From Psammoneis japonica (Eukaryota), in contig QPGO01000035.1 in the NCBI GenBank assembly GCA_008632985.1, positions 1 to 48,168 of the forward strand: a stretch of DNA of 48,168 nucleotides, in the 5' to 3' direction. Below the pieces are notes generated by a model that ran no database searches, was not told the DNA's origin, and worked only from the letters and a program-made list of their open reading frames with translations. Both the position numbers and the translations under genes were made by a program. Shown here one piece after another: positions 1 through 45,092 of this stretch. Every line of letters begins with the position of its first letter. Position 1 is the first letter of the stretch.

Positions 1-716
1 GCTTTGATTTGAATCATTTGCACAACGGGCTGAAAGGCGGGATCCGACGAAGCCCCCTGCAAGGCTTGCTTCATGGTGAGTATCGCTCGATGAGTTAGCG
101 ACATGGTGTCAGTTCTGATGAATAAAAAGAAAAAGTGCGTGTGAGATACACCTGAAAACATGTCGCCGGAGTGATTCAATTATTATAAGGATGCATCCGC
201 TCCGTCGTAAGCGTCTGTAACACCACATAAGAAGCCACAAGAACTCACATAATGTTACTTTACTGATGAATAAGAGGGAGAAACGGTAGTGATTGGTAGG
301 AAAAGGCTGAAAGCAACGGCGCTGTTGTTTGTGTCATGGGGCGCAAGTGAAAGTGGGCGGTGTTGGCTGGGGAGTGCCTTCTCGTCGAAGGTCTCGTGCT
401 CTGGTATGTCATGCAGTGGGATTCTACGCTATGTGAGAAGTGCACTGGATTCTACAAGGCAAATTTGGCGCGAAAGATTTTATACGGGGGACGAACAGAC
501 CGTACGAATCCTAAGGTTGCGGCAGATCACAATCCTGTTTGCGATCGATCACTATCGTTTCGAGCTCCAATTATTGCAGCTAAAATAGCACTAAAAGCTC
601 GGCGATCAACGATCAACATGTAACAGCAACAAACAACAAACATGGGCCCATGCAGCATACCGGTAGTGAGTGTTGACGCTTTATAAGTTTCTTTTTCATT
701 CATCCACGCAAGAACC

Positions 717-1990
717 ATGGAGAATCAGGCAGTTGCTCATCCAAGAGAAGACGAGAATGTTTTGGAGGAGAGCAAAGAGCAAGCAGTTGTTCCCGCGGAT
801 GCAGAGCATGCCGAGACGAAGGATGAATGCTGTGAAACAAATTCCTCGCGAAACAAACAAAGCAATGAGGATGACAGAGACCCCTCCAGCAAAGTCCCTG
901 CTCATCAGAATGATGAACAAATCAAGCGACGCAAACTCAGTGAGAACGGGGATGCGACAATGATGAGCAACGAAAAGAATCAGACAGTTGTGCATCCAAA
1001 AGAAGGCGAAAATGCTTTGGAGGAGATCGACGAGGAGGCAGTTGTTCCTGTCGCGGAAGCATCAGAACACGACGAGAAGCATGAGTGCAATTCCTCGCGA
1101 GACACACAAAGCCATGAGGCCGACAGAGATCCCTCCAGTGACGTCCCTGCGAATCAGAATGACGAACAGAATGAGCGACGCAAACTTGACGAGAACAGGG
1201 AGACGACGCCGATGAGCAACAAGAAGAATCTGACAGTTGCGCATTCAAGAGAAGAAGGCGAGAATGTTTTGGAGGAAGTCGACGAGGAAGCAGTTGTTCC
1301 TGCCGCCGAAGCAACGGAACACGCCAACAAGGATGAATGCGGTGAAAGAAGCTCCTCGCAAAACAAACAAAGCAATGAGGACAGAGATCCCTCTGATGAA
1401 GTCCCTGCCATTCAGAATGAGGAAAAAAGTGATGGACGAAAACTCGATGAGAATGCGGCAACGACGACGAGCAACGAGAAGAATCAGACAGTTGCGCATT
1501 CAAGAGAAGAAAGCAAGAACGTTTTGGAGGAGGTCGACGAGGAAGCAGTTGTTCCTGCCGCGGACGCATCAGAACATGCCGACAAGGATGAATGCGATGA
1601 AACAAATTCCTTGAGAGACAAACAAAGCAATGAGGACAGAGATGCCTCCAGCGAAGAGCCTGCTGTTCAGAATGAGGAAAAAAGTGATGGATGCAAACTC
1701 GATGAGAACGCGGCAACGACGACGAGCAACAAGAAGAATCAGACAGCTGCGCATTCAAGAGAAGAAGGTGAGAATGTTTTGGAGGAGGTTGACGAGGAAG
1801 CAGTTGTTCCTGCCGCAGAAGCAGAACCTGCCGAGAAGGATGAATGCGGTGAAACAAGCTCCTTGCGAAACAAACAAAGCAATGAGGACAGAGATCCCTC
1901 CCATGAAGTCCCTGCCAGTCAGACTGTTGAACAGAACAAGCAATGCAAACTCAATGAGAACGGGGAGATGACGATGGTGAACAACAAAAA
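717..1990 (+). repeat. Five tandem ~250-255 bp (~85 aa) coding repeats
   Basis: Units start near 717, 975, 1224, 1479 and 1734 (aagaatcagacagttg...), with ENVLEEVDEEAVVPA...KQSNEDRDPS repeated. Confidence 0.95.
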
Positions 1991-3029
1991 TAACCCGTCA
2001 GAAGAATTGCGTCGTAAACCAACACCCCGTTACGAGGACACATGGAAGAAAATGTTTGAAAACGTAAAAGCATGCAAGGCGGAACACGGGCATTGTCGCG
2101 CACCGCAGAGGTCCAAGGAAAGACCGATTTTGAGCCAATGGGTCAAGAAGCAGCGCCGGCTTTACCATGAGGGCGAGCTCCAAAGTGATCGCAAGGAAGC
2201 TTTGGCATCAATTGGCTTTGAATGGGGCAAGCAGAAAAACCCGCTTGCTGCACCTAGACCTGCTCTTGACGAAGAGGCATGGAAGGACAAGTTTCAGAAA
2301 TTGAGAGCTTGTCAGGTGGAAAACGGTCACTGTCGCGTCCCTCAGAATTACAAAAAAGATGAATCGTTGGGCAGATGGGTAAAGAGGCAGCGTGTGCTGT
2401 GCCACAGCGGCAAGCTCCTCACTCATCGGGAAGAGGCATTGACATCGGTTGGATTTATTTGGGAAAAGCAACAAGGTGGTCTCCACCCGGACGACAAAGC
2501 TTGGAACAAAAAGCTCGAGCAGCTGAAAGCTTGCAAGTTGGAAAAAGGTGACTGTCATGTCCCGCAGAAACATTTGAGCAACCCTTCTCTGGGAAAATGG
2601 ATGCAAAGACAGCGTTGGCTTCACAGCAAGGGTGAGCCAACTGACAATCGCAAAGATGCCTTGGATGCAGTTGGCGTTGATTGGGAACATCAGAGGTGCG
2701 CTGTCGAAAATGAAGCATGGGACTCCAAATTTGAAAGACTGAAAGCTTTCAAGCTTCAGAGCGGTCACTGTTGCGTGCCGCACAACTGTGAAGAGGACCC
2801 GTCATTAGGAAATTGGGCCATGAAGCAGCACAAGCTGAACAGAAGAGGCGAACTCCACAGTGATCGAAAGGAAGCCTTGGATGCGATTGCTTTTGATGAT
2901 GATGACACATGGAATGAGAAGCCCAAGCGATTGAAGGCTTGCCAAATGGAAAATGGTGACTGTCTCGTCGCTTGCAAGCACAGAAGCTGCCGCTTGTTGG
3001 GAGCATGGGTCAAAAGGCAGCGAGCTTGA
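717..3029 (+). pseudogene. Helicase-associated (HA) domain repeat protein with N-terminal acidic tandem repeats; hypermutated, premature stop
   Basis: Five W..kf..L......GHC.VP......LG.WV..QR......L...R...L..IGF.W units. Tyr positions appear as C/H. The stop TGA at 3027-3029 aligns with CGA (14077-14079) in the paralogous copy, and the HA motif continues in frame after it (RKEALDSIGFPW). Confidence 0.8.
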
Positions 3030-3045
3030 TGCCAGAACAGGACTC

Positions 3046-4000
3046 TCAGCAATGTCCGAAAAGAAGCCTTGGATTCAATTGGCTTTCCCTGGAAATTGTG
3101 GTTGGATGGCACGGAAGGACATTGTTGAAAACATCCTCGATGAGAAGCTTTTGATTCGATCGGCTTGGAATTGAAGGAGCGCAGCACGAGTGTGAAGCCA
3201 ACTCGAAAATGTGAGGTAGCACAACGCAGTGAACTTGACCAGAAGAGCATTGGGATGGAGCCTTAGAGGGTCTGTGAAGCGTCATTGGCAAAAATTGTTG
3301 GACATGTGATGCCACAACGTCGTCCGCGAGATTTTCAATCTGACATTTCAAGGACTTTAGATGTTCGTTCGCGGAGTGTCTGTTGCAATGCTTGTGCTCA
3401 TGCAAGAGAAACGGTGGGAGCTCTGTGCCAATGTCACTGCGCATGCTTTCCACGATTTTACAGTCGAGACCCTCTGTGTCGATGAGAACAAACACTGTGT
3501 TTTTGGACTCAGCAAGAAGCTCTGAGAAGTTGAGCACATTTACGCGAGTTTCAACAATGCAGTCTTCTGCTGTGTGTCCAACCCAAACTGCTTCCATTGT
3601 TGGCTTTCCTTCATTGCAATGCTTTTGTCAAAGACAGAGATTTGAGTCACCCACGGCGGGAGCTGTTTTCCACTGTTGGAATCGTAACCGGTGTGGACGT
3701 CAATGGTCTCATTTGTCGCATGGAACATCAAATCGTTGTCCTCTTTGTCAAGGAACGACACCGGCGTGAACCGTCTTGAAAGTGCACTGTGAGCCTTCAC
3801 ATTTTTTTCAAGTTCAGCACACTCTGGTTAGGAGGCGATGCCTCAATCATTGTGCATTCAATGCAAGCTTGTCGCAGCTCTGTTGGTGGGCCTTCCAACA
3901 AAGCAGTGATGCCCTTGGCAAAGGGATCGTCATCTTCCCAACCTGTGTGCGCTCCAATTCGCAAAACACGCAAGACTTCTGACTTTTCCTGTGGCACTTT
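3046..4000 (-). pseudogene. 5'-truncated, frameshifted, hypermutated copy of the FkbM-like gene at 14357-15349
   Basis: Near-identical to 14100-15060 and split over ORFs 3797-4198, 3540-3800 and 3046-3597. Y->C/H changes; the original TAA stop has become CAA. Confidence 0.92.
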
Positions 4001-4039
4001 GATGCAATGTGCCACGCACGCATGTGTGAGACGACGCCA

Positions 4040-4900
4040 TGCTGTTGTCTGTTCAGCAGAGTGCACACGTCGTGTGGGCAGTGCTTGCTGCGACGCAAAC
4101 TGCCAGAGTGAGTGGTGTGAAAGGGAGCTCCACATGTCTCCCTGACAGCACTCTGCTTTGTGAATCTTCCCACACCTCAACCAACCTCCCTGATTCAACC
4201 ATGTTTTGTCTTGTCACACGTTTGAGCAATGAGACATCATGGCAAAAAAGCCCATGCCTTGTCCCTTTCTTTGACAACAACACTTTGTTGTCACACCAGC
4301 ATCCTTTGGCTGAAGAAAAACACAACATGGGCTCTGATCAGCTGGTGTGACAGCCAGAAAAAACACAAAGTTGCCTCATTTTTCATGTGAGCTTGCCTTG
4401 TCAAACTTCAGCATGGGATCCCTTGGCACTTCTGAGAGGGAGGAAGGAAGTGGAGCAGAGAGAGAGATGAGAGGGAAAAACAAAGAAAAAATGATGTGCA
4501 GCACTGGCATCAGTTGACCATGCAGAGTCCAACACTCACCTTCCCCGTGAGCTTTGACCAGCTCACTTGGCAGCATGTTGGGTGGTGCACAGGGGGGGGG
4601 GGGGAAGCCAGCACCACCTGTGTAAAATGAAGTCCTTTGTTTGAGCTGCTGGCTGGTGTGAGAGATGGGCAAAATGTGCAACTTTGCACATGTGGTGTGC
4701 ACTCTTTCATTTCAGAGAATGTTCTGTTTCCAGTCAGAGCTGCAAAATCCTGTGCACAAGACTTCTCCAATTTTGTTTCACTGCACCAGATGGTGGGATG
4801 GCATGCTGGCCAAAGGTGAAAATGACAAAGATGCAGCCAGCTGGCCCTTGCCACCAGTGGCTGCCCCTGCTCTGCAGCTCAGAAGGGCATGAGCCATCAG
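4040..4900. repeat. Degenerate copy of the hAT-element segment also at ~7030-7850 and ~15570-16400
   Basis: Shared blocks such as tgtgaaagg(g)agctcca, ctga(t/c)cag(c/t)tggtgtg and agctttgaccagctcacttgg. Confidence 0.75.
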
Positions 4901-5249
4901 CACTGTGTCGCCACACATGCAGCTCACATCCCACTTCATTCTTGACCACAAGCAGGCTTGGGCAAGGGCACACTTTGCATCCACTCTTGGTCATCCTCTT
5001 GCAAGTGGATGAATGAACAGATGAACTCAAGAACAACAACAGAAAAATGTGATGACCAGCTCAAATTGACAACAGACAAATGAATGAACAGATGAATGAA
5101 TGATGAGAACATGGGTGCAAACAACACACCACACTGCTGCAAAAAAATGTGCCTCCGCCATTTGGCGCCATTTCTCATTGAGTTAAAACAAACTGCAATG
5201 CACCCCTCACTGGCCAACACTCTGCAACTCAGTTTCTTTGTTGCGCCAG

Positions 5250-7850
5250 TCATTGTCATCAGCAGTGCTGCAACTGCAAATTTTCAACTGCTCACCCCAG
5301 AGCCCAGCAACCATTTCAAAAAGCCTTGGCATTGTTCATTTGCAATCAGCTGCAATCACCATCCCACAATTCAAAAAGAGCAACTCAACCACCATGGCAG
5401 TGGCGGTGCTGAGGAAGCCACAGTCTGCACACTTGGTTCTCATGACAGCATCATCATCATGCAATCTCTTCTTTCCAGCTTCCACTGCAGCTGAAATTTG
5501 GAGGGACAGTCAACGTTGGTTGCATCTGTGGCTGCTTCTTCTTCTGGTGGATGCAGTTCTGGCCAATGCTCCTTGAGAAGAGCTGCAACACAAGCCCATT
5601 GCTTCTCTGACACTGTCAACTGATGTGCCACTCTCCCTGCTCAAAGACTGGGCACTCCATGGGGGGGAAGTGTGCTCTCAAGTGGCTCTCAAACTCCTCT
5701 GAGTGATTTTTTAGAATGGGGGCTTTGTGGCATGCTTTGAACAACTGAAGTTGGTGCAGCAAATTCACATCTCATCATGCTGCTGGCTGGATCTGTCTGA
5801 TCCACTCCTTCAATGTGTCATGCGACAAGGTGTGCAGCAGCTCTTGTCAAAATCCCTCTTCTCATTGGTGCTGAGAAGAGCTGGTGGGACCTTCTCAGTT
5901 TCTTCATTCAGTCCATTCTCAAAATCCTCTGTGTCTTTGGGTGTCACTGCATCAAACTGGTGTGATGCCAAGAACAACCTTGTGGTGCATCTGCCAAACC
6001 AAAGCTTTTTCTTTTTGCTGCCCTGTTTTGTTCTTGGTCTTTGGTCATCTGGCAGGATGTGGTGGTTGCAGATTTTTGCACTGACTTCAATGCTCTGGCT
6101 TGCAGCATGGCTGGATGAGGTGCAGCTCAACAAATTTCTGCACCAACTTTGACTGCACTGGTGATCACAGCATGAGCAGATGAGTGCCACACCCAACAGA
6201 TTTTTGCACTGGCAACTTTGACTGCACTGCCTTGCAGCATGACTGGACAAATGCTGCCCAACAAGCCCACCAGCTTGCCATCAAACATGTTGTTCATGAT
6301 CCAGCATGTCACCCCACCTGATTCAAATGGTGGCAGCATGCACAGCCTCACATTTCTCACTGTGCATTTGTCAACACTGCAGTTGTTGAGAGTGAAAGCC
6401 ACAACAAGAAGCTTGTCAAGAATGTCATTCTCAGACCACATGTTGCAAGCAAGCAGCAGCAAAACAAGATGCAATGGAATCTGCTTCTGGGTCTGTTTCA
6501 TTCAACAATGGCTCAATGGAAAGCAGCAACTTCAGTGCCTGCATTTGTCCATTGGCATCTCTGGTGGGCCACTGGTGGTGTGCAAGAGCATTGTGGCCCC
6601 CAACTGTCTGCGGTGCAAGAATTCCCTTTGCTGAGTGAACCTTTGTCTTTCAATCCAACAACATCAGCAAGCATGACAACATGCTTGTGGATTGTCTTGC
6701 AACTTTTTTTTAAATTCAAATGCTGGTGGCCAACCTCAACTTCCACAATGGACAATGCTTTGTTGTGCTTCACAATGACCTCAATCCAGCCAAATGCCTT
6801 TCTTGCTTTTGCTGAGAACTGGGGCTTGAACGACCCAGCAAATGTGGCATGGAGCTGGGGAGGTTGTTTTGCTGCTGTCATTTCCTCATGGTGCTTCCTC
6901 CAAATCAGCTGCATGGTGTTCTTGCATTCATCAGAAATCCAAGACACTTTTTTCAATGCCGGAAGTGTCCATGGGAAACCAAGTTGTTGCACCCACTGCC
7001 TGAGGCAATTTTGTCTTTCTTGCAATGGGTTGTGAAAGGAGCTCCATGTCTCTTCCTCACAGCATTTTGTCCACTTTGTGAACCTTGCTGCACTGCAACC
7101 AACTTTCCCAGCCCAACCATGATGCCTTGTGCCTTGTCTTCTTAATGACACATGGAAAAAAGTTGTTTTGTTCTTGGAGAGCACAACACTTCATTGTCAC
7201 AATGTCCTTTGGTTGAAGCACAGCACAACATCATGGGCTCTGATCAGTTGGTGTGGCAACAAACAAAAACACAAAGCAATCTCATTTTTCACATGATGAA
7301 AGCTTGTGCCTTGTCAAACTTTGCCACAGAGCTCCACTGTGCTTCTCAAGAAGGAAGGGAAGAAGAGCAGAGAAAACACAAAGAAAGCAAGCATGCACTC
7401 CCAGCTGGACAGTTGGTTGACCATGCAGAGCCCCAGTGCTCACCTCCATTGCACACCAGCTTTGACCAGCTCACTTGGTGCAATGTGTGATGGTGTGCAA
7501 GAGGGAAAGAAAGTCAGCGTCACTTGTGAATGACAAAATCCTTCTGATTTCTTGGAAAGCTGCACAGAAATCTTTGGTTGGGTTGTCTGTCTTTATGTGT
7601 GTGCAGTGTGTGCCCTTTCACATTCCAAGAGTGTGCTCTGTTCCAACCTGTGGCTTTTGCAAAATCATGTGCACAAGACATTTTGGAAATTGGCTGTTGT
7701 GATTGTTTTTGTTTCTTGACCAGAGCTCAAAAAGAGACCATGTTTGGTTTTAGAGACACATCTTGCTCTGTTTTGCTGCAGATGGCAGGGAGGCAGGCTG
7801 GCCAGAGGAGGTGAAAAGACCGTGGGGTGTCTCTCTTTCACACACCTCTG
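5250..7850 (-). mobile_element. Degenerate hAT-like DDE transposon (transposase relic)
   Basis: ORF 6513-7184 has KARKAFGWIEVIVKHNKALSIVE...SCKTIHKHV...TADSWG, resembling stramenopile hAT-like FGW.EWIV...LS.V...KT..KY...DGWS; downstream LNNCSVDK resembles GDNCSVN. Many stops and frameshifts. Boundaries approximate. Confidence 0.6.
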
Positions 7851-7889
7851 TTTCACAGCTGCTGTGCTGGTCAGCTCAAAGGTGCGCAA

Positions 7890-10640
7890 ATCATCTGTTT
7901 TTGACAGGCAAGGTCAGAAAAATCTTGAGACCAACAAATGGATGATGAGCAGCATGGAGAGAGCTTGCCACGTCAATCTCACAGACAGAAACTTGAAGTG
8001 CAGGGCTTGAATCCTCCCAACAGTTGCACATCTTTGGTGTGGGACCCAGTTGGTGGGGCTGTGTGCTCAAGGTTTTGTTTTGTGTGTGCTCTGCTCTTTG
8101 TTGGTGACTTTTCAATGCAACAGAGCTGTTCCCTTCCTTGTGCACACTCCTGAGGCACCCAGCACACCACAAAACCATGTTGGTGAGGCAAGCTGGTGCT
8201 TGCAACCATGGTGTTTGAGCCTGCAGACAACAATTTTCAGAAAGGGGTGCATCATCAACTGTGCTTGTGCCAGTGGCAAGGTGAAAGAAAAAATGGCTTG
8301 CACTGCCAGCATGTGCACAGAGATGGTGGTTCTGCTCAATTGTCCAAAGGTCCCAGAGAAATTTGTTGTTGCACCACAAAGGTGATGTTTGCACACTCCT
8401 CTCAGAATTGGGAGGTCACTGGGGGGTTTCACAATCTAAGATGATGCAAGAAAGTCCAAAGTTTTGGCTCTTCCTGGATTGCTTCCACAACACTCTGTTG
8501 ACAAAGGCAGATCTTGCAGCAAATGTTGATGCCATTTTTGAGCCCTTGGTCTTCTGCAACCATCTCAGCTGTTGCTCAAAAGAGGCACACATCCTTCACA
8601 TTGGCAAACAAGGAGTTTGGCCATTTCAGCACAACAAGCTCCCAACTGCATTGAGCAAATTCACAATCAATGTGAGTCATGAGACCCAAGTCAATGTGTG
8701 GCATTGCACTGTCCCACTGGACCTTGTTCCCACACACTTTTCTGCCCCATGCTTCAGGGGCAACTGTGGTGGCCCATTTGTTGCATTTGTGATTGCTGTT
8801 CCAAGAAGGGTGGGACCATCATCTGGTCATTTGTGTGACAGTCAAGTGTGGCAAACACCATCATTGAGTGTGTTGGGAGAGATGACTTTGCAAAGGATTC
8901 ATCATCACTTCGCTGCAGAATTTTTTGGCATGTTTGCAACTCAGAAAAAATGGAAAATCCCTCTGGAGCAGAGGTGGTGTTGAGCACCACTTTGATCTGA
9001 TGGAACAAAATCTGTGGCAGGCATGTGACACTGGATGTCATTGGGGGTGGGTGCAGCTCATCAGATTTTTTGAGTTGCCTTGAGCTTTCAACATTGGCAA
9101 GCACTTTGGCTGATCATGTGACAATGCTGAGGTGTGTCTCCCAGTGGAGCTGGAGGAGCAGAGTCAAGAGCTGTTTTGAAGGATGCTGTGGAGCATCTGG
9201 TGTGGACACATTTTGGGTGGTGGTGCCTCTGGAGAGTTGATGACAGCATGTGTCTGGGGTCAGCACCAGCACATCTGCTCCATCATTCCACAATTAAATC
9301 TGTCCATGTCTCACAGGTGGGCAAGATGAAAGTTGGGGTTTGGGGCTGACCACTTTCAAAATGACCAAATTTGAAAGCAGTTTTTGTGTGCAAAAAGAGC
9401 ATCCAATGATGACTGTTGAAGGTGCAGGGCTGAACATGATTTGCTTTGTGTGAACACACAAAATGTTTCAAATTTTGAGTTGCCTTGTCTCATTGCTGGA
9501 GTGGGGGGGACATCAACTCCTGGCCAGTTGAAGCACCACTTTTTCATTTTAAGGGTTGTTGACATTGAATGTTTGATCACCAGTTGCTTTGGTCTTTTCA
9601 TCTGCTTGCCTCAATCAGTGGCTGTGATGTGGCGCTTCTTTTCGTTTGAGAATGCATCAGATTTTGTGCGTGGATCTGGCTTTTGTCACTTGATGGTTTT
9701 TGTGATTTTTGCACACAGTGGAGCAACCTTGAGACAAAGCCCCCCTGGTGCCTTGTCCTCACCTCAGGCTGACCTCACCCAACAACCGTCAATCCTCATC
9801 AAGTGCACGTCATTCAAAGGGCACCTTCCTTTTGTGAAGCTCCCCCCCAAAAAGCCAACAGTGCCAATGCAATGTGGCTTCTTCTTTCTCCACATTCTTG
9901 CTGGGGCTCCTTGTAAGAGGGCAGCCATGGTGCAGCTTAAGAAGTGGGTCCACATGCCTTGATTTGCTCCCAGCCTGCTTGCAATGAGCATCTGGACAGG
10001 CTGCAAATGAGGCATCAGCTCGTCAAGATCGGATGACAAATCACAAAGACAACAAGTGCAAGACAGAGTGTGTGGTGTTTTCATGGAATGTTGTGCACTC
10101 TCGCCACTCACTGTGCCAGACCATTTGTGTGGGCTGCAAGAAGTGCCACACCATCAATTTGAGATCAGAGAGGTGTGCAACAAAGAGATGTGACCCCCTG
10201 ATGAGACATTTTGTGTGATGACACTCACACAGATGTTGTGAAATCTTTTTTCTTTGCCAGTGACAAACATCCAAAGAAAGCCCAAGAACACTGCAGCTGT
10301 CCTTCTCTCTCTGAGAGGGACAAACAAGAGACAACATCATGTGCTCATCATCACTCCGTGGCATTGGTTGTTTTGCCGTCCCCCGTGGATGGCTGCAAAG
10401 ACAACAAAACACCACAGCCGCCATCAGTGAAGTGATCAATCAAGTGGTGTTTTCACGTGCAGTTGGACCAAAAAGAAGAGATTCAATGTTGTGTGGTCGA
10501 GCAGTTTTCCCATTGTGTGACTGGCGCAAGATAAAAAGCTGCACCGGCACAGAAGCCTCGCTGTGCATGCAACACCTTGCTGGATTGGCCCATAAAAGCC
10601 TAGCAAAACGGTTATAACGGTGTTCGTGATTATTACCCTA
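7890..10640 (-). mobile_element. Degenerate repeat, possibly a MULE/MuDR-like DNA transposon
   Basis: TA- and CpG-void block. SWIM-like remnant (LGACCAEMAKLLVCQCEG, ~8590-8660), knuckle-like WCAGCLRSVH, and a right end ...attaccc. Family assignment is weak. Confidence 0.3.
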
Positions 10641-11235
10641 AACACTCGAGCAGGCGCGCCTAGGTTTGTAGTTTATAGTAGATACTGTACTTTACTGTGG
10701 TCCCCATTATTAGTTTTGAAAGCTAATATATTCCTAATTGATGAATACGTATATTGGTATTCATCACTTGAAAGTACATATATTATTTATTAAACTCTCA
10801 ACATGTAATATTAAAAGCCCATCTCCTCCAAAAATCCGAAAATTTTCGTCGCGGAGCGAGGCAGGAAGCGAAGATGATGACGACGATGAGAATAGAAAGA
10901 GATGCCGATATGTCAGCGCGATCGAAAGGATTTACAAGGTTATGCTAAAAGAGTAAACGAGTATCCGTCATGATGAGCTTACGGCTGCATGCGCTATGCT
11001 TCAGGTGGTGAGAAAACGAGTTCATCGGAGTTGGCCGACCATACCGTCTTCGCACATGTTAGCGATGTATCCGTTACACATGTTTGGAAGGAATCAGCGA
11101 CCAATCTGTCCGCCCAACAGGGGACTGTGGTTGGAATGAGGTCACAATTCGTACGAGTAGGGCCCTAGGTAGCAAGGTCTCCACAGGCAGTCTCGCTGAC
11201 TTATTGAAGAACTCCATTGTCACAAACTCATCGCC

Positions 11236-13339
11236 ATGGCGAAGTCAAACGACAGGGCTCAAGTGATCGCTCGGCTTCGTCCCAAGAGCAAGAGCGAGCA
11301 AGAAAACGGTGTGTCAAATGCATGGAAGATAGAGGGAGGAACGTCTATTGTAGAAAAGGTCCCAAAGAGGAAAAAGCCACCCAAGAAGTATGATTTCGAC
11401 CGTGTCTTCAATGGCGAGGAAACAACTCAATTTGTCTACGAGAATTCCGCTTGTAAGGAGACTGTGGCCAAAGCTCTTTTAGGGGAAAGCGGTTGCATTC
11501 TCGGATATGGACAGACTTCATCAGGAAAGACTCACACTCTCGTGGGCTCGGCTGATGGTCGTGACGGTGTTGTTCAACTGGCCTTTGCGGACATGCAAGC
11601 CAAGTCCGGTCACGCATCTATTATCCATTTGAGCATTCTCGAGGTGTACAATAAGAACGTCTACGACCTTTTTTCAAAAGAGAGAAAAGCGATAGCAAAT
11701 AAGTGTGATGGAGGGAAGATAGCAAATAAGTGTGATGGAGGGACGCGGGTACATGTCCCCAACTCCAAGGCACTGAACGAGGCGTTGCAAAAGGCTATGG
11801 CCTCTCGAATATGCAAGAAAACGAAGTTGAATGACACGTCATCTCGAAGTCACTGTTTGTTGATGTTCGATATCCGCAGTCAAGCAACGCCGCTAGAAAA
11901 AGAAAATCAAGGTTTGGGAAATCTGCAAGTCAGGGCTTGCAGAGCAAAGCTAGCCATTGTTGATTTGGCAGGTAGCGAGCGAATGTACGATGGTAAGGAG
12001 GACGGGCTCGCCAAAGAAGGAATCGCAATCAACAGGAGGTACGTCCCACACAGATATCCTTCCCTGCCACAAGTGCCTGACTCAAAAACTCATTGTTCTT
12101 GTCTTGTTGCACCGTCCTTCCTCTCTTAGCTTGTTGGAACTCAGACGGTGCATCAGTGCAATTGCCAATGGCAATGCGCGAGTGCCGTACGATGATGTGT
12201 TGCCGAATGCCCTCAAGCCTTACTTCTCTGGAGACGGAAACATTACCACAATTCTTTGCGCAGCTCCTGGGGATCCCAACGTGACTGACACCAAGCAAAC
12301 CTTCGATTTCGGCTCAGATTGCAAGAAAGTCAAGACATGTCCAAAGCAGAAAATTGTTTTGGCAGATCGAAGCATCTTTGATTCGAACGAAGACAAAGGC
12401 ATCAGCTTTCGTCAAGAGACGATGCACCATACTGTTTCACTCTCTGAACACCATCATGTTGTGAGTGAGAAGGAAAGGCTTCAATCCGAATGTGAGAAGC
12501 TTCGCCAGGAATGCGGCGGACATGAATCTGTTTTGTCGCAGAAACAACAGCTTGAGCATGATCTTTATGAGGCCCAGCGAATGCTAAAGGCAGAAAAGAC
12601 CAGTGGCTACGAGAAGGACAAGGCGCGAGTGGAGCTTCAATCTGAAGTTGACAGGCTTCGCCAAGAATACCAGAGTCTTGCGAAAGCGGAAGCTCGTCGC
12701 AAAGAAAGACGCGCGAAGACAAACAAAACGAAAAAAGACGCGCCCGGCAGGACAGCGGATGAAGTAAAAAGTCTTGAGAAGGAAATTGAGAGATTGAAGA
12801 AAGAAGCCCAGCGAAGGGACAGGGAATCAGAATCCAATTTTGATCGGCTCGTGCAGCAGCAGCGAGAGATAGCACTTTCGAATGATAGTTTGGTGCGGCG
12901 AAACAAACTCTTGGAGAAAGAAGCAAAGGAGAAGTACTTACGTTTCTGCGAACACCTTCGAATCAAAGATGAAGAAAATGAGAGACTCGCCATGGACAAT
13001 AAGCGGCTCGCCATGGACAAAGCTGATCTCGAAGAACAGATGAGGATGGGCTACGAAAACGCCACGAAGAAGATCGAACGCTTCAAACGAGAGTGCGAAC
13101 GCATGGAGGAAAAACACATCGAGGAGGTCGAAGGCTTGAAAGATAAGATTAAAGAGTTCGAAGACGAGTTGAACGTCATGAGAGCAGAACGCCTCCGCCG
13201 CAACCACACACGCGTCAAGGGATCCCTAGCACGCGTCATTGATTCCAGTGATGATGATGATGATTCCATCCCGGACTTATCGAATAATGACGATGATCAT
13301 TCCTTCGTGGACCTCACGAGGTGCGATGATGATGAATGA
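11236..13339 (+). CDS. Divergent kinesin (N-terminal motor, coiled-coil tail); intron 12039-12129; ~670 aa
   Basis: ARLRP, YDFDRVF, P-loop GYGQTSSGKTHT, LEVYN, NDTSSRSH, VDLAGSER. Splicing GT(12039)..AG(12129) restores INRSLLEL. Confidence 0.92.
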
Positions 13340-13584
13340 AGGAACGAGTTTGTTTAGTACAAGTGATGGCGACGACTCCTGTAGTAGTAGATTGTTTTTT
13401 AGCCATCATGCTTTTGGTGAGCAACTAATCCTCGCGCGCAATAGTTGTTTGTGCCTCCTTCCATCGCGCCAGTTCAAACTGCTGTAGGCGACACGTTGTC
13501 TTGGAAAATTTTCAAACCGCGCCGTTCAAACCGCCCTCTCTATTAGCAAAGAGGTGGCGCAGACACTGTTCGTGTGCTGCAGAA

Positions 13585-14340
13585 GGCGAGCTCCGAAGTG
13601 ATCGCAAAGAAGCTTTGGCATCGATTGGCTTTGAATGGGGCAAACAGAAAGACCCGCATACTGCACCTAGACCTGCTCTTGACGAAGAGGCATGGAAGCG
13701 ACGAGCAGGCAGTTGTTCCCGCAGAAGCATCAGAACATGCTGAGAAGGATGAATACCTTGAAAGAAATTCCTCTCGAGACAAACAAAGCAACGAGGAGAG
13801 AGATCCCTCCAATGACGTCCCTGCAATCAGAATGACGAACAAAGCAAGAGACGAAAACTCGACGAGAACGGGGAACGAGGCGACGATGATGAAACGGCAA
13901 CGAAAATACCCCCTCAGATGAATTGCGTCGTAAACCGGCACCCCGTTACGAGGATACAAGGAAGCAAAGATTTGGAGAGGTAAACTCATACATGACAGAA
14001 CACGGCCATTGTCGCGTTCCGCGGAGGTCTAAGGAAGACCCCGCCGTTGGGAGTATGGATCAAAAAGCAGCGAGCTCGATACCGGGGGACGATCAGCTGT
14101 TCGAAAAGAAGCCTTGGATTCAATTGGCTTTCCCTGCAAATTATAGTCACATGGCACGGAAGTTCATTATTGAAAACGCCAAAGTCCTCAATGATCGATG
14201 AGAAGCTTTTGATTCGATCGGCTTGGAAGTCAGGGAGCGTAGCACGAGCGTGAAGCCAACTAGAAAATGCGAGGTAGCACAACGCAGTTAACTCGACCAG
14301 GCAGAATAGCGTTGGGATGGAGCGTTAGAGGGTCTATGAA
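13585..14340 (+). pseudogene. Rearranged, internally deleted remnant of the HA-domain gene
   Basis: Contains GELRSDRKEALASIGFEWGKQK...LDEEAWK, one N-terminal repeat unit, RRKPAPRYEDT...HGHCRVP and GVWIKKQRARY, with frameshifts and no start. Confidence 0.85.
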
Positions 14341-14356
14341 GCGTTATTGGTAAAAC

Positions 14357-15349
14357 TTATTGGACATATGATGCCACAACGTCGTCCGCGAGATTTTCAA
14401 TCTGATATTTCAAGGACTTTAGATGTTCGTTCGCGGAGCGTCTGTTGCAATGCTTATGCTCATACAAGAGAAACGGTGGGAGCTCCGTGCCAATGTCACT
14501 ACGCATGCTTTCAACGATTTTACAGTCGAGACCCTCCGTGTCGATGAGAACAAATATTGTGTTTTTGGACTGAGCAAGAAGCTCCGAGAAGTTGAGCACA
14601 TTTACGCGAGTTTCAACAATGTAGTCTTCTATATCCAACCCAAACTGCTTCCATTGATTGCTTTCCTTCATTACAATGTTTTTGTCAAAGGAAGAGATTT
14701 GAGTCACCCACGGCGGGAACTGCTTTCCACTATTGGAATCGTAACCGGTGTGGACGTCAATGGTCTCATTTATCGCATAGAACAGCAAATCTTTATCCTC
14801 TTTGTCTGGAACGACACCGGCGTGAACCGTCTTGAAAGTGCACAGAGAGCTGTGAGCCTTGACATTTTTTTCAAGTTCAGAATAGTTAGGAGGCGATGCC
14901 TCAATCATTGTGTATTCGATGCGAGCTTGTCGCAGCTCTATTGGTAGGCTTTCCAACAAAGCAGTGATGCCCTTGGCGAAGGGATCGTTAGCTTCCCAAC
15001 CTGTATGCGCTCCAATTTGCAAAATACGCAAGACTTCTGACTTTTCCTGTAGCACTTTGTTCATCATTCCCATCATGTGACTTACAAAGCCTCTTTTGCA
15101 AAGGCTCATCCACACCGGCCCGTATAAACCACCAGTGCAAACAGCCTCAGTGCCTCGCACGAAGGCAGCCGCATGTTCCGTTGTCATCATATTTGTAGGA
15201 TTATTGATCGACGCAATCGAGTTGACCTGCATGTCCATGTGAGGACGAGTCCACAAGAGCAACAAAAGGAGACCTACAGAAATAGTCCAAGCTCTGAAGA
15301 AGCGTCTCTTTCGACCATACTTCCTTGTATTTTCCATCATGACAGTCAT
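14357..15349 (-). CDS. FkbM-like SAM-dependent methyltransferase with N-terminal membrane anchor
   Basis: 330 aa ORF with TM segment ISVGLLLLLLW and motifs ILQIGAHTG, IEASP and LIDTEGLD. Confidence 0.8.
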   Translation of the reverse strand: MTVMMENTRKYGRKRRFFRAWTISVGLLLLLLWTRPHMDMQVNSIASINNPTNMMTTEHAAAFVRGTEAVCTGGLYGPVWMSLCKRGFVSHMMGMMNKVLQEKSEVLRILQIGAHTGWEANDPFAKGITALLESLPIELRQARIEYTMIEASPPNYSELEKNVKAHSSLCTFKTVHAGVVPDKEDKDLLFYAINETIDVHTGYDSNSGKQFPPWVTQISSFDKNIVMKESNQWKQFGLDIEDYIVETRVNVLNFSELLAQSKNTIFVLIDTEGLDCKIVESMRSDIGTELPPFLLYEHKHCNRRSANEHLKSLKYQIENLADDVVASYVQ

Positions 15350-15499
15350 GTCATCGAGATTGGGGGATTGTTTGAGGCCGCAGGCTGCAGGCTGTCGCTA
15401 CTACTCTCTAGTTCGGCGTTCGGCCGTCAAAATGTGAGGGGGGAAACGAGAACCGTTATATATTTTTCAGGACTGTAGGGGAATGAAAGGTACGAAATT

Positions 15500-16600
15500 T
15501 TGTCAAATCACTTGCACTGACTGCTGTGCAGTGTCGGCATCATTGCTGGGCTAATGCAGGCCCCCTTGTGTTGTTGTCTGTTCAGCAGATCATGCTATGA
15601 AGCAAACCAGGTGTTGTGAAAGGAGCTCCAAATCTCTCCTGGACAGCACTCTGTACAATTTGTGAACCTTGCTGCACTTCAACCCCACACAACTTCCTTC
15701 TCCCCGGCTCGGTCATGTTTTGTCCTCTTGCTGTGTTTCAACAACAAGGCATGGGTGAAAAAAGTTCCCCAGCTCCTTTGAAGTGACACTTTTTTCATTG
15801 TCACAATCTGACCAGCTGGTGTGACAGCCAAACAACAAGGCACAAGTGCCACACACCTCTTTTTTTTTTGCACGACAATCCTCTCCTTGCTGAACTTTGC
15901 TGCAGAGCCTCTTTGGAAAAAAGAGCAGAGAAAAAGAACAAAGACAATGACCAGGCAGCATGGTGCCAACTGTGCTGGAAAAGTCATGTGGGCCATTGGC
16001 GGGCTTCACAAATGCTGCGACCTTCCCCACGAGCAGCTTTGGCTGGCTTGGTTGGAAACATGTTGGGTGGTGCACAAAAGAGGGCAAGAAAGCCAGCATG
16101 CCTCCTGTGAAATGAAATCCTTCTGAGCTGAGAGAGATGTGCAAAACTGGGTTGTTTTGCTTTGCCTGTGCGGCATGAGCTCTTTCGAGAACGCTCGCCC
16201 TTTGACTCCAACGTGGCTGGGGTTGCAAAAAAGAATTGTGTGGGTCATTGCAGGTTTTTGTTTCTTGACCAGATCTCAAAAAGGGGTGGCTCCACCAGGT
16301 GCTTCTCACTTTGCTCCAGTGTGGGCTGCTGTGCACGGCAGGAAGTTGGTCAAGGGTGAAAGTGCCATGGCTGCACACAGCCAGCTGGCGCCCCCCATCA
16401 CCAGAGCACAAAGAAAAATGCAAAAACATGACCAGACCTTCTGTGTTCACTCCTGCTGGGTCAGGAAGGATGTGATGTCATTCTCACCTGTGCCGCTGTC
16501 CCACCGCAGTCTTGCACAACAATTCATCCATCCATCGATCCAGGGCAGAGATGGGGGCGCGGGCGGGGTGCGGGCGGGCGGGCGCGGCATGAAGAATCAT
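15500..16600. mobile_element. Non-autonomous hAT-derived element between divergent genes
   Basis: Homologous to 4040-4900 and 7030-7850; TA-void interior; GC-rich gcgg-repeat end at 16553-16588. Confidence 0.55.
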
Positions 16601-16700
16601 CATCGTCTGCTTGTTGCACGCGCGAATCATCAACGTGCGATACGCGGCCGCCAGTTTCGAAGATAGCCTCATCATGGAGTGTGATGAGTGATGAACGACA

Positions 16701-18971
16701 ATGAGCATCACTGAGGATGTTACAGAAGCACTAAAATCGGCACGATACAATGATTTAGTTCACATTAATGTGTCATTGGAGGATGATGATCAGCAAAGAG
16801 AAATTATTCTGCGAGCCTCATTGGATGCCGAGAACGGAGGCATTCTGTGGAACCCGTTGAAGCATGACAGCTCAACGATGATGAAACACCACTTGCGCAC
16901 CAAAAGATGGTTCTTTCCCATGCTCAATGATCACCGACGAAATCAGCTTTATGACAAGGCCATTCGACTGGCAAGTGAAGATGTTGTGCGACGATTCTCT
17001 TCCTCTGACGAAACACCTGCTGACGAACAAATTATTACTGGACTCGATATCGGATCGGGTACGGGTCTGCTGGCCATGCTATCCGCAAAACATATCCATC
17101 AAGGTTTGACCAACCTGGCAGCCGACAAGAAGACTTCAGTAGAGATCAAATCCTTGGAAATGTCGAATGCAATGTCGCAAATTGCACAACAAACTGTACA
17201 GGCTAATCAGCTCGGCCACCAAATTCAAGTGCTGGAACGCCATTCATGTGAAATGGATCCTCTCCAACGAAAGGCACATTTGTGTACCTCCGAATTACTC
17301 GAGAGTAAATTGTTGGGAGAAGGATGGTTGCCAGCCATGCGAGATGCGTGGGAGAGGCATTTGCATCCTCAAGCCATTGTTGTGCCACAGCGGGCTCGTC
17401 TGTATGCACAAATTGTCCAAGGAGATAATAGTCTTTGCAACTATTGGGGACCGCATCAGGCTGTCAAGGGATTTCCTGAGAATCGACAGTTGAAACTATG
17501 GTGTACAGGAGGAGATGGAAATGACGAATATCTGTTACAATCGAATGGATTTACCCTGGAGATTCACGCAAAACAGTTGCTTGCCGACAGAGACAATCCT
17601 CTCAGACTATTGTCAGATCCAATTCCTATTCTTGATTTTGATGTTACTTCGAGGGAAGCGATACCTCCAACAGAGGGACGGACGAAAACGGTAGAAGTTT
17701 CCCCGATAGCTAGCGGTAGAGCTCAAGGGGTGTTGTATTGGTGGGAGCTAGATCTGTACGGGGACAGTCTCACTTACAGCACACATTATCACGAGGAGTT
17801 TCAAGATCACTGGCATCAGTGCCTCTTTGTCTTTGCAAGGGCGCCAGAGGATTGTGCGGAGATGATTGCAGGGGAATCAGTCATTCTAAAGGCAATGCAC
17901 GACGACTCGAATATACACTTTGACGTTTCCTCCTTTAAAGAGAAAGAAACCTCCGCCTCCGCAAAGCGCTTGAAGCCCAATCCAGCCGATAAAAAACCAA
18001 CGATATCACCAGAGCGCGCTTGGCAGCTGAATGATCCGAGGCGTATGGGCACAATAAGAAATGGGATATCATTTGCCATGCAACAGGTTGGAATGAAAAC
18101 GTCGATTGTTTTGGATGTATCCGATTTTTCGCTGGGAGCCGTAATGGCTGCCTTGCTTGGAGCTCCAAAAGTGTACTCCATCGAAAGCAGCTCCGGTTCG
18201 TTGCCACTGGCTGCGGCTCGAATCGCTCAGCTAGCAAACGACCTTCCATTGGACAAGGCAGATCCCAGTAGCTTTCAGATACTACAATGTCATCCTGAAC
18301 AATTGACGACACGTGAATTCGAAGGAAAGCAACCAAACATTGTTGTAGCCGAGCCATACTATGAAGTATTGGAAGGTTGGCATTTGCAAGAAGCTCTCAA
18401 CTATTTTTACATGCTTCGTGCCTTGAAGAGAAGAGGTGTTGTCAGCGCCACTGCTCTGTCCGTACCGGCTTCAGCATCCATCATGATTTGTGCATTCGAG
18501 TCATCCGAGATTGGCCGCGCTTATAAGTATTGTGACGAGGAGATCTGTGGATTTCAACACGACGCAATCAATGCCAACGCACCTCTGTTTGATCACGACA
18601 TTGTAATTCCTTCTTGGCAATACGACATTACGCCCTTGACAAAGCCTGTTGCGGTTGCCACGATTGACTATCAGGCTTGCCAAATCACGCAGGGTTCTAC
18701 ACCCGAGAAAGTACCAATTATGACAAGTGGGACTTGTTATGGAATGCTGGTGTGGATAGATTGTGAGATACCACAAGAAGGTGTAACGAAGGGTGTCTTG
18801 TCCACCCGAGGACGTTGTCACCAACAGATTGTACGTTTGCTAGCGCCCCCCGTTGAGGTTAGCTCGACCGATGTTCTTGAAAAGAACGCTGCGTTTTCTT
18901 GCCGATTTGTACTCAACAAGAATGACGACGAGGACTATGACTTCGAGTTTGGTGTTAACCTTGACTCGTGA
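16701..18971 (+). CDS. PRMT7: Protein arginine N-methyltransferase 7-like (two PRMT modules)
   Basis: MLNDHRRN, LDIGSGTGLLAML, double-E loop SELLESKLLGEG, DHWHQ loop typical of PRMT7, and a second degenerate module with AEPYY. Confidence 0.85.
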   Translation: MSITEDVTEALKSARYNDLVHINVSLEDDDQQREIILRASLDAENGGILWNPLKHDSSTMMKHHLRTKRWFFPMLNDHRRNQLYDKAIRLASEDVVRRFSSSDETPADEQIITGLDIGSGTGLLAMLSAKHIHQGLTNLAADKKTSVEIKSLEMSNAMSQIAQQTVQANQLGHQIQVLERHSCEMDPLQRKAHLCTSELLESKLLGEGWLPAMRDAWERHLHPQAIVVPQRARLYAQIVQGDNSLCNYWGPHQAVKGFPENRQLKLWCTGGDGNDEYLLQSNGFTLEIHAKQLLADRDNPLRLLSDPIPILDFDVTSREAIPPTEGRTKTVEVSPIASGRAQGVLYWWELDLYGDSLTYSTHYHEEFQDHWHQCLFVFARAPEDCAEMIAGESVILKAMHDDSNIHFDVSSFKEKETSASAKRLKPNPADKKPTISPERAWQLNDPRRMGTIRNGISFAMQQVGMKTSIVLDVSDFSLGAVMAALLGAPKVYSIESSSGSLPLAAARIAQLANDLPLDKADPSSFQILQCHPEQLTTREFEGKQPNIVVAEPYYEVLEGWHLQEALNYFYMLRALKRRGVVSATALSVPASASIMICAFESSEIGRAYKYCDEEICGFQHDAINANAPLFDHDIVIPSWQYDITPLTKPVAVATIDYQACQITQGSTPEKVPIMTSGTCYGMLVWIDCEIPQEGVTKGVLSTRGRCHQQIVRLLAPPVEVSSTDVLEKNAAFSCRFVLNKNDDEDYDFEFGVNLDS

Positions 18972-19199
18972 GGTCTGGTGAGTTCGTTGTGACAGGGAAA
19001 ACGGCCGTGTCATGGACTAAGAAATAGATTAAGAAGCAGGATGCTGAAAGGAAGATGTTTTGAATTCAACGGCAGAACGAATTACAGTGCACCACTGAAT
19101 TGCAACTTTAGAAGCCAAGGTTCGACAGGTCACGTCATGGAGAATGTGCATGGCCGAATGGTCATCACCGGATGACTGTGGTTTGTCTCATGGGCATCA

Positions 19200-33155: not shown

Positions 33156-33640
33156 TTTTTCATTTGAAATTCATTGAAACTATGGATTTGTAGACCGATA
33201 AAAGCGGTCAGGTTATTTAGATCCTCAAGTGTGGACCTTATATATATGTTTTCTACGTATGTCACACGATGTTGTCACGGGATATAAACAATTGTTCTTT
33301 ATATATTCATTTAATATATTTAATCTTCCCAACGAATACAATAAGTATATATTTAATACCTTTCAATATGATAATTTAACCGTTTTGTTAAACACGGAAA
33401 TTCAGTATCAAATTTATCTTGAACCGGTAACTCGACGTTTCATAGTCGTTTCAGATATAAATTTTAATCATTTTGGAGACAAGTGGTATTCAACGACTTG
33501 TCGCGCCAAAATTTTGAATTCGTTTTGAGAGGGGAGGCTCTTTGTGTGCTCGCTTGTCTGTGCTCTTCTTTCTTGCTGTGATCTGCTGTCTGTGCTCTGC
33601 GGCAATCACACACAAAAATAAAACAAGAAGCAACCCCACC

Positions 33641-38800: not shown

Positions 38801-39540
38801 ACACATGTGCACAGCAAATGCACTGAATTCATGAGCAACTTGAGTGCCAGCTGCTGCTTGCCAACACACACCATGGCACTGCTTTGTGCTGCAAAACTCA
38901 ACCAATCGGGGTGAGATGTTGCTGCTGGTTGTGCCAACATGCCAACGCCCACCCCACCAAGTTTTTGAGAGCAAGTTGATCGCACATGGTGGCTCCACAG
39001 CAAAGTGAGCAAATGCAGCTAAGACAGCCAAGAAACAGACAATGAAAATTGTTGCAGAGAGCAGAAATTGGCAGGCTTTGCATGTCTGTGTGAGCATCCA
39101 AGCAGCATCTTCTTCTTGCCCCGCTGGCGGCTCTCTGTCAGCAACAGATGCACCACCCACCCACCAAAGCAACTGGCAAATATGTGTGCACACACAGGTT
39201 CACATCAGCAGCACATTGCATGGTTTCATTCACTCTCACTGTTTTTGCCACACCTGGCAGATGGCTTTGGTCAACCTGACTTCTGAGGCAAAACTGTTGC
39301 CAGAAACTTCTTGATGTTGGGCTCGAGGCTTTTGTTTTGTTGTGTTTTCATTTTCTCTGTCTTCTTTGCTGGCTGTGTTGAACAGCTTCAGGCTCTGCAT
39401 GCGCTGCACACTTTGCCGCTTTTTCTTGGTGAGTGCAGCGCTTGGTCCTGGTTTTTGTTGGATGCGTTTTAGAAAAGGCAACTGTGGTGTGCGCGTTTGT
39501 TTCGCCAAAAGTTGAACTGCGATTCGATTTATTTCCGTTG
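35820..39540. mobile_element. Degenerate repeat, probably a DNA-transposon relic (family unresolved)
   Basis: TA/CpG-void block (~36100-39400) between two normal genes, with no intact ORF; K-rich and Cys-rich remnants on the minus strand. Confidence 0.4.
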
Positions 39541-44432: not shown

Positions 44433-44936
44433 TGAGATATGAGGTATGATGAAGAGATTCGTAAGAAGAGAATGTTGTGTCGCCTTGTAAAGGAACGTTA
44501 GGAGTTAGGATCGCATCCGGTTCACGTCATGACATCCTGGATCCTGGAAGGTCCATAGCTTTGAGCGAGAATAACTACACGGTAGAAAGTAGGTACCGTA
44601 CAGTAACCCCCCCCCCCCGAGGTGCATACGTAACTATCCGAGAGCCTGTGAGTCACGAGTCAACAACCGAGTCTGATTCACGGATGACGCTCCCGGTCAT
44701 GGATCTCTTCTTCCGGAAGAAATGTCCGTTGAGTCTTCTAGCGATAGTAATCGGAGTGACACACACGACCGTTAGGTCATAATGTCATCTCCAATCCCTC
44801 GTGAGATCTTCTCACAATTCGTATCTTTAGCGTATCTTATTGTCCCAAAACCCACTTCTTATCATCCTCTGTTGTATTGTACAACCTCAAGAGAGTCCTG
44901 AACTCTCCATCCTACACAGTGTGTTGTTGTATCCCA
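44433..44936 (+). repeat. Candidate 5' LTR of the copia element
   Basis: Non-coding stretch upstream of gag with imperfect terminal inverted match tgagatat..gtatccca, followed by ag-TGG (possible PBS at 44939). Second LTR is outside the window; an alternative start is tgttg at 44473. Confidence 0.35.
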
Positions 44937-45092
44937 AGTGGTTACGACCCCAATCCACGCACCGGCATCAACTCGCAACGGAGTTGCTGCCACTCGTTTG
45001 TCTCGTTACAGACGACATCCTGTCCAACGGCGATCTTCTATGTCGCAATCCCCACCCACCAATCGATCCTCTACATCGAATCATCCACAACC

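Follow-up and report, generated by a model that had tools for sequence, protein, structure and literature searches.

Probable directional conversion of TpA to TpG and CpA in sharply bounded domains of a diatom genome, read from a duplicated gene segment of Psammoneis japonica

The DNA analysed here is a stretch of 48,168 nucleotides of Psammoneis japonica (assembly GCA_008632985.1, contig QPGO01000035.1, positions 1 to 48,168 of the forward strand), hereafter the window, to which all coordinates refer. Its genes are long and intron-poor, and repeats of the helicase-associated (HA) domain are present. One segment, holding the 3' end of an HA-domain gene and a convergent FkbM-like methyltransferase gene, occurs twice, as copies A and B, which were located by self-BLAST and then globally aligned over 990 columns; substitutions are read from B to A. 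The dinucleotide profile along the window was used to map domains that have lost nearly all their TpA dinucleotides (written TA below), and the segment called copy A lies in one of them (Table 1).

Table 1. Features of the window that bear on TA depletion (ORF, open reading frame; D1 to D4, TA-depleted domains, D1 being given in two parts).
Feature	Positions	Strand	Content	Basis
Copy A	2996-4001		3' end of HA-domain gene and FkbM-like methyltransferase pseudogene; hypermutated at TA	88% identity to copy B
Copy B	14046-15059		Unmutated reference with normal TA content	Dinucleotide profile; homologue residues agree with B
FkbM-like methyltransferase ORF P0001, in copy B	14357-15349	minus	Intact, 330 amino acids	Pfam PF05050 match weak, below cut-off
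Methyltransferase pseudogene, in copy A	3298-4000	minus		tblastn, alignment and codon projection
HA-domain ORF	717-3029	plus	770 amino acids, five HA domains; wholly in TA-free domain; ends at TGA where B has CGA
D1a	685-4219		TA 17 (4.8 per kb); CG largely kept (47.8 per kb)
D1b	4220-10531		TA 12 (1.9 per kb); CG 31 (4.9 per kb); TG+CA about 1.9 times expectation	0 Pfam matches at curated cut-off
D2	15655-16640		TA 0; CG-poor to about 16540, then a CG-rich stretch before the PRMT7 gene
D3	19390-24764		TA 11 (2.0 per kb); CG 63 (11.7 per kb)
D4	36000-39469		TA 12 (3.5 per kb); CG 28 (8.1 per kb)
Degraded element, copy 1	4120-4767	plus	Upstream of methyltransferase gene	Recoded self-BLAST
Degraded element, copy 2	7034-7684	plus		Recoded self-BLAST
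Degraded element, copy 3	15618-16123	plus	Adjoins copy B	Recoded self-BLAST

The window is bimodal in its TA content, and the effect, first noticed at 2990-4000, reaches far beyond that interval. Four sharp-edged domains, covering 19,678 bases or 41% of the window, contain 52 TA between them, versus 1,027 in the 28,490 bases outside; the density is 0-4.8 per kb in the domains and 36.0 per kb outside, where CG stands at 55.4 per kb. Within the domains the observed/expected ratio is 0.03-0.08 for TA and 1.3-1.9 for TG and CA, the summed numbers of the latter two being roughly equal (2,160 TG and 2,182 CA), with D3 leaning towards CA (568 TG, 676 CA). The edges are sharp within about 50-100 bases and adjoin either TA-rich, promoter-like DNA or a CG-rich stretch. 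Copy A is part of a continuous TA-free domain of 9.8 kb and has about 6 kb of depleted DNA on its flank. When the same metric was applied to 32 metagenome loci encoding PRMT7 relatives (296 kb), 0 depleted windows of 500 nucleotides were found; these loci are short, gene-rich contigs, and they control the metric only, being uninformative on absence from other diatoms. A TATAAG-like box (681-686) stands just before the start of D1, about 30 bases upstream of the ATG of the HA-domain ORF, and the edge near 685 may coincide with a transcription start.

The duplicated segment gives the spectrum of change directly. The two copies differ by substitution at 91 of the 990 aligned columns, with 26 A>G, 16 T>C, 12 C>T, 10 G>A and 27 transversions. 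Among the 42 TA of copy B, 35 are changed in copy A (22 to TG, 10 to CA and 3 otherwise) and 7 are kept, and no new TA has appeared in copy A, since all of its 7 TA are also TA in B. Conversion of TA to TG or CA (32/42) can thus be set against the reverse change (0/137), with a Fisher p of 6e-27. The CG dinucleotides are less affected: 14 of the 55 in copy B have become TG (8) or CA (6), while 3 CG of copy A have no CG in B, so that TA has been lost about 5-6 times faster than CG in copy A. Outside TA and CG, 38 of 790 sites differ (4.8%), by 17 transitions, including 4 A>G and 5 T>C, and 21 transversions. Expressed per dinucleotide since the duplication, the change at TA, -ln(7/42) = 1.79, is about 37 times the background of 2 x 2.4%.

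These counts bear out most of what the initial annotation had read by eye from a shorter comparison (3278-3510 against 14341-14570). There, 9 of 11 TA are indeed converted, those at 14420 and 14521 being kept, and they are accompanied by 3 CG>TG changes (14439, 14486, 14537) and 3 other changes (14356, 14513, 14557). Also found are the Tyr>His/Cys replacements, the stop codon TAA turned into CAA and the paired changes at 3024/14074. The A:T>G:C change at TpA on both strands, opposite in direction to the repeat-induced point mutation (RIP) of fungi, likewise holds over the whole segment (22 TG and 10 CA, with 0 new TA), and so does the excess of A>G and T>C in TA context, which amounts to 32/42 at TA versus 9/790 at sites that are neither TA nor CG.

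Both strands are affected, and the TG and CA products (22 and 10) are interleaved along the pair. The target is the T-A step rather than W-A in general: AA has become AG at only 2 of 77 sites and TT has become CT at 3 of 99, versus 32 of 42 for TA. This distinction bears on one of the mutators named by the initial annotation, an error-prone repair of polymerase-eta type recruited to silenced chromatin. Polymerase eta produces A>G at WA motifs, which would include the affected step; the AA and TT counts, together with the refractoriness of TA flanked as TTA or TAA (see below), make this candidate very improbable.

The flanks of TA influence its fate. Among the TA surviving in the domains, 45 of 52 lie in TTA or TAA, versus 410 of 1,030 outside (Fisher p = 2e-11), and TTAA makes up 25% of the survivors versus 4% outside. 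The duplicated segment behaves in the same way, with 10 TTA/TAA converted and 6 kept, against 22 converted and 1 kept for the other TA (p = 0.013); when a TTA does convert, it mostly gives TTG (8/10 after orienting). The preferred site is therefore V-T-A-B, a TA after T or before A being refractory. As a reading of the sequence, this rule would fit a target A in 5'-T-A-B and equally a target T in 5'-V-T-A.

The direction of change, which is central to the argument, was examined through the proteins. The methyltransferase ORF of copy B has 40 homologues, the named ones coming from diatoms (Bacillariaceae sp., Cylindrotheca fusiformis). The pseudogene of copy A is without the first 97 codons, has four frame-breaking indels in its coding part, shows 7 Tyr>His/Cys replacements and has its stop changed to Gln. 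Copy A was projected onto the frame of copy B, with X at gaps, and B was aligned with 38 homologues. Of the 29 residue positions at which the copies differ, 22 show the B state more often among the homologues, and the remaining 7 the A state. Seven Tyr residues of B are replaced by His or Cys in A, and at 6 of these sites the homologues have an aromatic residue, Tyr or Trp/Phe; Tyr is found in 37 of the 38 at position 243, in 35 at position 315 and in 34 at position 191, and there is no conservation at position 328. Translated on the plus strand, B gives L-G-V-W-I-K-K-Q-R-A-R-Y and A gives L-G-A-W-V-K-R-Q-R-A-stop-C, the stop of copy A having arisen by CGA>TGA and the adjacent codon having changed from TAC to TGC.

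A third, diverged copy of the 3' part of the HA-domain gene lies elsewhere in the genome and has TA or CG where copy A has TG or CA. It was recovered in read contigs of two public runs (X1 and X2) against 2547-3280, from which it differs by 58 letters and 7 gaps across 739 bases. Over 2638-2993, among the 32 differences listed, it has TA opposite TG or CA of the window at 11 and CG opposite TG or CA at 5, with 1 in the reverse direction for CG. The residues of the homologues, the TA of this third copy and the intact frame of B together indicate that the direction in copy A is from TA to TG or CA, the reverse of RIP, in agreement with the polarity that the initial annotation had drawn from an intact copy B (22/29 positions, 6/7 Tyr sites, and the third copy).

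The opposite polarity would make copy A the nearer to the ancestor, copy B and the normal regions having gained TA from CA and TG by a RIP-like C>T process. The TAA of B where A has CAA could be read in this way, and RIP favours CpA>TpA, as is also stated in the RIPCAL abstract. Such a scheme is nevertheless scarcely credible, as the 330-codon frame is intact in B and broken by indels in A, the homologues have the Tyr of B or another aromatic residue at 6 of 7 sites and its state more commonly at 22 of 29 positions, the third copy also has TA, and the TA-free state is that of a minority of the window.

It could also be asked whether the depleted DNA is real, since a sequencing or base-calling artefact might arise if modified bases of heterochromatin (5-methylcytosine, or a modified A or T) were taken for T or G. 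In favour of this, the two dinucleotides concerned are palindromic, as methylation sites are; methylation-linked transition errors are known from nanopore consensus sequences, and the library type of the runs is not recorded. The comparison with raw reads that the initial annotation had called for was made with contigs rebuilt from run X1, whose word depth is about 60-70 and equal within and outside the domains. These contigs reproduce the depleted DNA almost exactly, with 1 other letter over 3758-4602 and 1 other letter and 1 gap over 4723-9358; they differ from the window by 1 other letter over 9361-13638 and by 0 over 15619-20000. The two window/read differences in the domain core are both CG sites, position 4240 being TG in the window and CG in the reads, and position 5245 CG in the window and CA in the reads. 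Moreover, strand-specific miscalls would yield mixed calls rather than 0-1 TA per kb, and the conversions of copy A come together with indels and 4.8% of ordinary substitutions. A misreading of this kind is thus highly improbable: the X1 contigs rule out a consensus artefact for practical purposes, without amounting to an independent replication. The window and the read contigs also disagree by two small insertions, one of 10 bases after 15510 and one of 1 base at 5620. At 9339-10005, inside a depleted domain, the X1 word depth jumps to about 770 (versus about 65 elsewhere) and short joints and loose ends are numerous, a pattern that looks like a high-copy short repeat.

TA is not the only dinucleotide to be lost. 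In the domain cores (4220-10531, 19390-24764, 36000-39469), CG has an observed/expected ratio of 0.13, and the windows of 5001-10000 contain 1-6 CG per kb, a loss that reads as the ordinary signature of 5-methylcytosine deamination. The flanks of the surviving CG show no clear bias. In 685-4219, TA is lost and CG is retained, and no sizeable region has lost CG and kept TA; as the first situation occurs and never its reverse, the two processes appear to be separable and nested. Because the decays of TA and CG offset each other, the base composition and the GC percentage of the domains are unchanged, and a scan of GC content would therefore miss them. The stretch at 16540-16650 is very CG-rich (23 CG in 16501-16750), lies against CG-free domain just upstream of the PRMT7 start at 16701, and seems to mark an abrupt passage from decayed to protected CpG.

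When the self-BLAST was repeated after purine/pyrimidine recoding, no unmutated progenitor of the depleted domains was found elsewhere in the window. The recoding extends the A/B homology to 2899-4001 versus 13948-15059 and links the three copies of a degraded element, all of them depleted in TA and CG. The commonest double transition among these copies is TG opposite CA, with 21, 11 and 8 cases in the three pairings versus 1-6 for each other type. Such a discordance is expected if an ancestral TA or CG was resolved independently in each copy, and the process would thus have acted in place, after duplication. An alternative is that the changes were made in RNA: double-stranded transcripts would have been hyper-edited from A to I by an ADAR-like activity, then reverse-transcribed and integrated. 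ADARs prefer a U before the edited A according to the Discussion of a 2026 preprint on the chlorarachniophyte Bigelowiella natans (Mettrop et al., bioRxiv 10.64898/2026.01.13.699255), and convergent genes could yield double-stranded RNA. The affected DNA, on the other side, covers about 9.8 contiguous kb including intergenic sequence, its edges lie at gene boundaries, conversion is near-complete and on both strands, and copy A keeps the convergent two-gene layout of B and is hence no processed retrocopy. We regard a passage through RNA as most improbable.

The initial annotation had supposed a repeat-targeted mutator, and this part of its interpretation finds no support in our results: only one of the two copies is mutated, it is continuous with the 9.8-kb domain, and none of the three other domains has a partner within the window. 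A homology-triggered, RIP-like targeting, in which the duplication itself caused the mutation of copy A, would account for the clearest case being one member of a duplicated segment, and for the degraded element being present three times with all copies depleted. Copy B is however unaffected (40 TA per kb in 14001-15000), the lack of TA in copy A runs on into about 6 kb of depleted flank, and the three other domains remain partnerless even in the recoded BLAST; the main target in B. natans is moreover reported as single-copy in the text of the preprint (bioRxiv 10.64898/2026.01.13.699255). Triggering by homology is thus unlikely. With B spared and the depletion of copy A continuous with the core, the targeting looks domain-based rather than repeat-induced; it would be positional, probably relying on chromatin, and would have spread over copy A.

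All these results lead us to propose that a localized, directional conversion of TpA to TpG or CpA has very probably operated in this diatom genome, in sharply bounded domains and nearly to saturation. It would proceed by A:T>G:C transitions on either strand and on DNA in place. Copy A, with its HA-domain and convergent methyltransferase genes, would have been situated at the edge of a domain and swept in, copy B, 11 kb away, being left untouched. In the older domain cores CpG would also decay to TpG and CpA. Genes would be inactivated by missense changes such as Tyr>His/Cys, leaving long and misleading open frames, and signals containing TA would presumably be destroyed as well. The domains themselves might correspond to the silenced chromatin of relic mobile or foreign DNA, together with engulfed neighbours.

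How the A:T pair is changed is a separate matter, and the window sequence, as far as we can read it, does not discriminate between chemistries. One possibility, which we put forward tentatively and which falls a little short of an even prospect, is an enzymatic deamination of adenine (A>I, read as G) in a 5'-T-A-B context; an adenine deaminase, one of the candidates of the initial annotation, is plausible. Alternatively, a thymine lesion (oxidation to 5-hydroxymethyluracil, for example, or a further modified T at TpA) could mispair with G or be misrepaired to give T>C, or a symmetric N6-methyl mark on adenine at TpA could decay or be misrepaired. TA being self-complementary, T>C and A>G have identical outcomes, and the flank rule can be read as T being disfavoured after T. 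Dinoflagellates are known to replace T by hydroxymethyluracil preferentially at TpA, and methylated CpG offers a striking parallel by decaying to the same TG and CA products. On the opposite side, a literature search limited to N6-methyladenine gave ApT-type or unrelated reports only, with no evidence of such a modification in diatoms. A modified base as the source of the change is possible, if on the doubtful side.

Several points weigh against the proposal of a directional, domain-wide conversion or limit its reach. (i) The domain cores (4220-10531, 19390-24764, 36000-39469) are without a progenitor, and the case for their polarity relies on the A/B pair together with composition only. (ii) In a palindromic step such as TA, A>G looks the same as T>C, and adenine deamination is a candidate reading. 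(iii) The reads stem from a single sample of a single study, possibly the source of the assembly itself, with the library type unrecorded. (iv) The flank effect is based on 52 survivors and one pair of paralogues. (v) A Pfam scan of all 119 stop-to-stop ORFs of at least 70 amino acids in the depleted domains gave 0 matches at the curated cut-off, so that a mobile or viral origin is conjectural; the best match, to Imp-YgjV with 20.3 bits, is below cut-off and was taken as chance. (vi) B. natans and diatoms are distant relatives, and a machinery common to both is an assumption.

The consequences for coding sequences follow from the genetic code: turning TA into TG or CA abolishes TAA and TAG and can never give rise to a stop. 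Long, meaningless ORFs fill the domain cores. The HA-domain ORF accordingly remains open over 770 codons, although Tyr makes up only 0.39% of its residues, versus 1.3-4.6% in six other ORFs of the window. The N-terminal half of this ORF (721-2001) is made of tandem units of about 255 bases, 76-80% identical, that encode acidic repeats, and a related unit is found once in copy B, at 13697-13906.

The second run, X2, is RNA-like: one of its contigs skips a 91-base GT..AG intron (12039-12129) of a kinesin gene (11236-13339), and joining the exons across it gives a continuous kinesin motor frame. Its contigs cover only genes of normal composition and a diverged paralogue of 2065-3280; 3336-10672, 14008-16675 and 19344-20000 are uncovered, a result that is not used here as evidence of silencing. 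The PRMT7-like ORF (16701-18971) has its best named matches in Bacillariaceae sp. and Cylindrotheca closterium (both 54%), with more distant ones in Fragilaria, Seminavis, Nitzschia and Thalassiosira. Protein homology thus places the window in a raphid pennate diatom and not in Bigelowiella. An ORF of 716 amino acids on the minus strand (28276-30426) has a weak, sub-threshold NDC10_II match and is possibly Crypton-derived or related to tyrosine recombinases. An imperfect repeat of 18-base period at 32056-32331 corresponds to a Pro/Thr/Val/Glu-rich stretch of a 646-amino-acid ORF (31230-33170, minus strand). Finally, an ORF of 1,121 codons (44805-48167), open off the end of the window, has a zinc-knuckle-like Cys pattern and a protease-like D-T-G-A-S motif near its end; it has no Pfam match at E<=0.001 and is possibly a diatom Copia-like gag-pol. 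It was considered as a further hypermutated region and rejected, its TA observed/expected ratio being lowish (0.21-0.45) but its TG and CA normal.

Among known systems, the RIP of ascomycete fungi is similar: it too is a hypermutation by transitions at a specific dinucleotide, it inactivates duplicated or mobile sequence, and its compositional footprint is strong. RIP however changes C:G to T:A at CpA, thereby creating TpA, stop codons and AT-rich DNA, whereas here TA is destroyed, no stop can be created and the composition is unchanged. It also mutates both copies of a repeat, and here only copy A is affected, B having a normal TA content and an intact ORF. The decay of methylated CpG is closer in form: it also converts a self-complementary pyrimidine-purine step to TG and CA, on both strands and in restricted domains, and co-occurs with the loss of TA in this window. 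It differs in that A:T pairs are affected here, about 5-6 times faster in copy A, and also where CG is kept (685-4219). The ADAR and ADAT deaminases and the engineered, TadA-derived DNA adenine editors share the A>G outcome through inosine, with a 5' U/T preference reported for ADARs (see above), but the natural enzymes act on RNA. To our knowledge, no DNA-level activity of the ADAR/ADAT family over whole chromatin domains is established.

The nearest counterpart is found in B. natans. The initial annotation knew of no described system with this spectrum; one has been reported in 2026, and our literature search found no other description of it and no report from a diatom. According to the text of that preprint (Mettrop et al., bioRxiv 10.64898/2026.01.13.699255), integrated giant-virus and virophage DNA of B. 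natans undergoes a localized TpA>TpG/CpA hypermutation. In mutation-accumulation lines, 231 of 302 nuclear mutations fell in giant-virus and virophage regions; 230 of these 231 were A>G or T>C, all 230 at TpA, with a rate of about 6e-7 per site per generation, about 1000 times the background. The same text describes 124 clusters of 1-kb windows depleted in TpA and enriched in CpA+TpG, and its authors propose an ADAT2-like DNA adenine deaminase.

The likeness to our window lies in the A:T>G:C change confined to TpA, in the TG or CA product according to the strand, in the discrete regions and in the depletion of TpA with enrichment of CpA+TpG. There are also differences, set here against the main text of the preprint. 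The host is a diatom, a stramenopile, and not a rhizarian; TA observed/expected is 0.03-0.08, near saturation, versus 0.45 in the giant-virus region of B. natans; a duplicated, host-type gene pair is targeted, and the domains encode nothing recognisable as a viral or transposon protein; nested CpG decay accompanies the loss of TA in the domains, 'CpG' occurring 0 times in that main text; TTA and TAA are refractory, the words 'context', 'flanking' and 'trinucleotide' being absent from it; and only a historical footprint is available here, whereas de novo mutations were seen in B. natans. Whether the two represent the same process, in the sense of a shared machinery, appears to us evenly balanced.

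The comparison has several implications. The process may not be the curiosity of one species and may be widespread among major marine phytoplankton. Ordinary duplicated genes, and not viral inserts alone, would be open to engulfment, and the losses of TA and CpG would occupy nested yet separable territories. The V-T-A-B rule provides a signature that can be checked against the de novo mutations of B. natans and against candidate enzymes; should the enzyme prove to deaminate adenine in DNA, nature would offer a counterpart to the engineered adenine base editors. For annotation, domains without TAA and TAG give long spurious ORFs and escape GC-content scans. A wider and more speculative idea, conceivable but rather unlikely, is that diatoms and chlorarachniophytes share an ancient, chromatin-directed DNA-editing defence, possibly across the stramenopile-alveolate-rhizarian assemblage, which erases TpA at V-T-A-B in silenced DNA by means of a natural double-stranded-DNA adenine deaminase or of a writer of symmetric TpA modification. 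Such a defence and the decay of methylated CpG would together drive both self-complementary pyrimidine-purine steps to TG and CA. It would have been overlooked because it creates no stops and leaves the base composition unchanged, annotations would be littered with long false ORFs, and the enzyme would be new to biology and directly relevant to base editing. Set beside the known systems, the process seen in P. japonica is thus of a kind known from a single 2026 preprint, found here in a diatom, which extends a barely known process to a new lineage and adds features to it.

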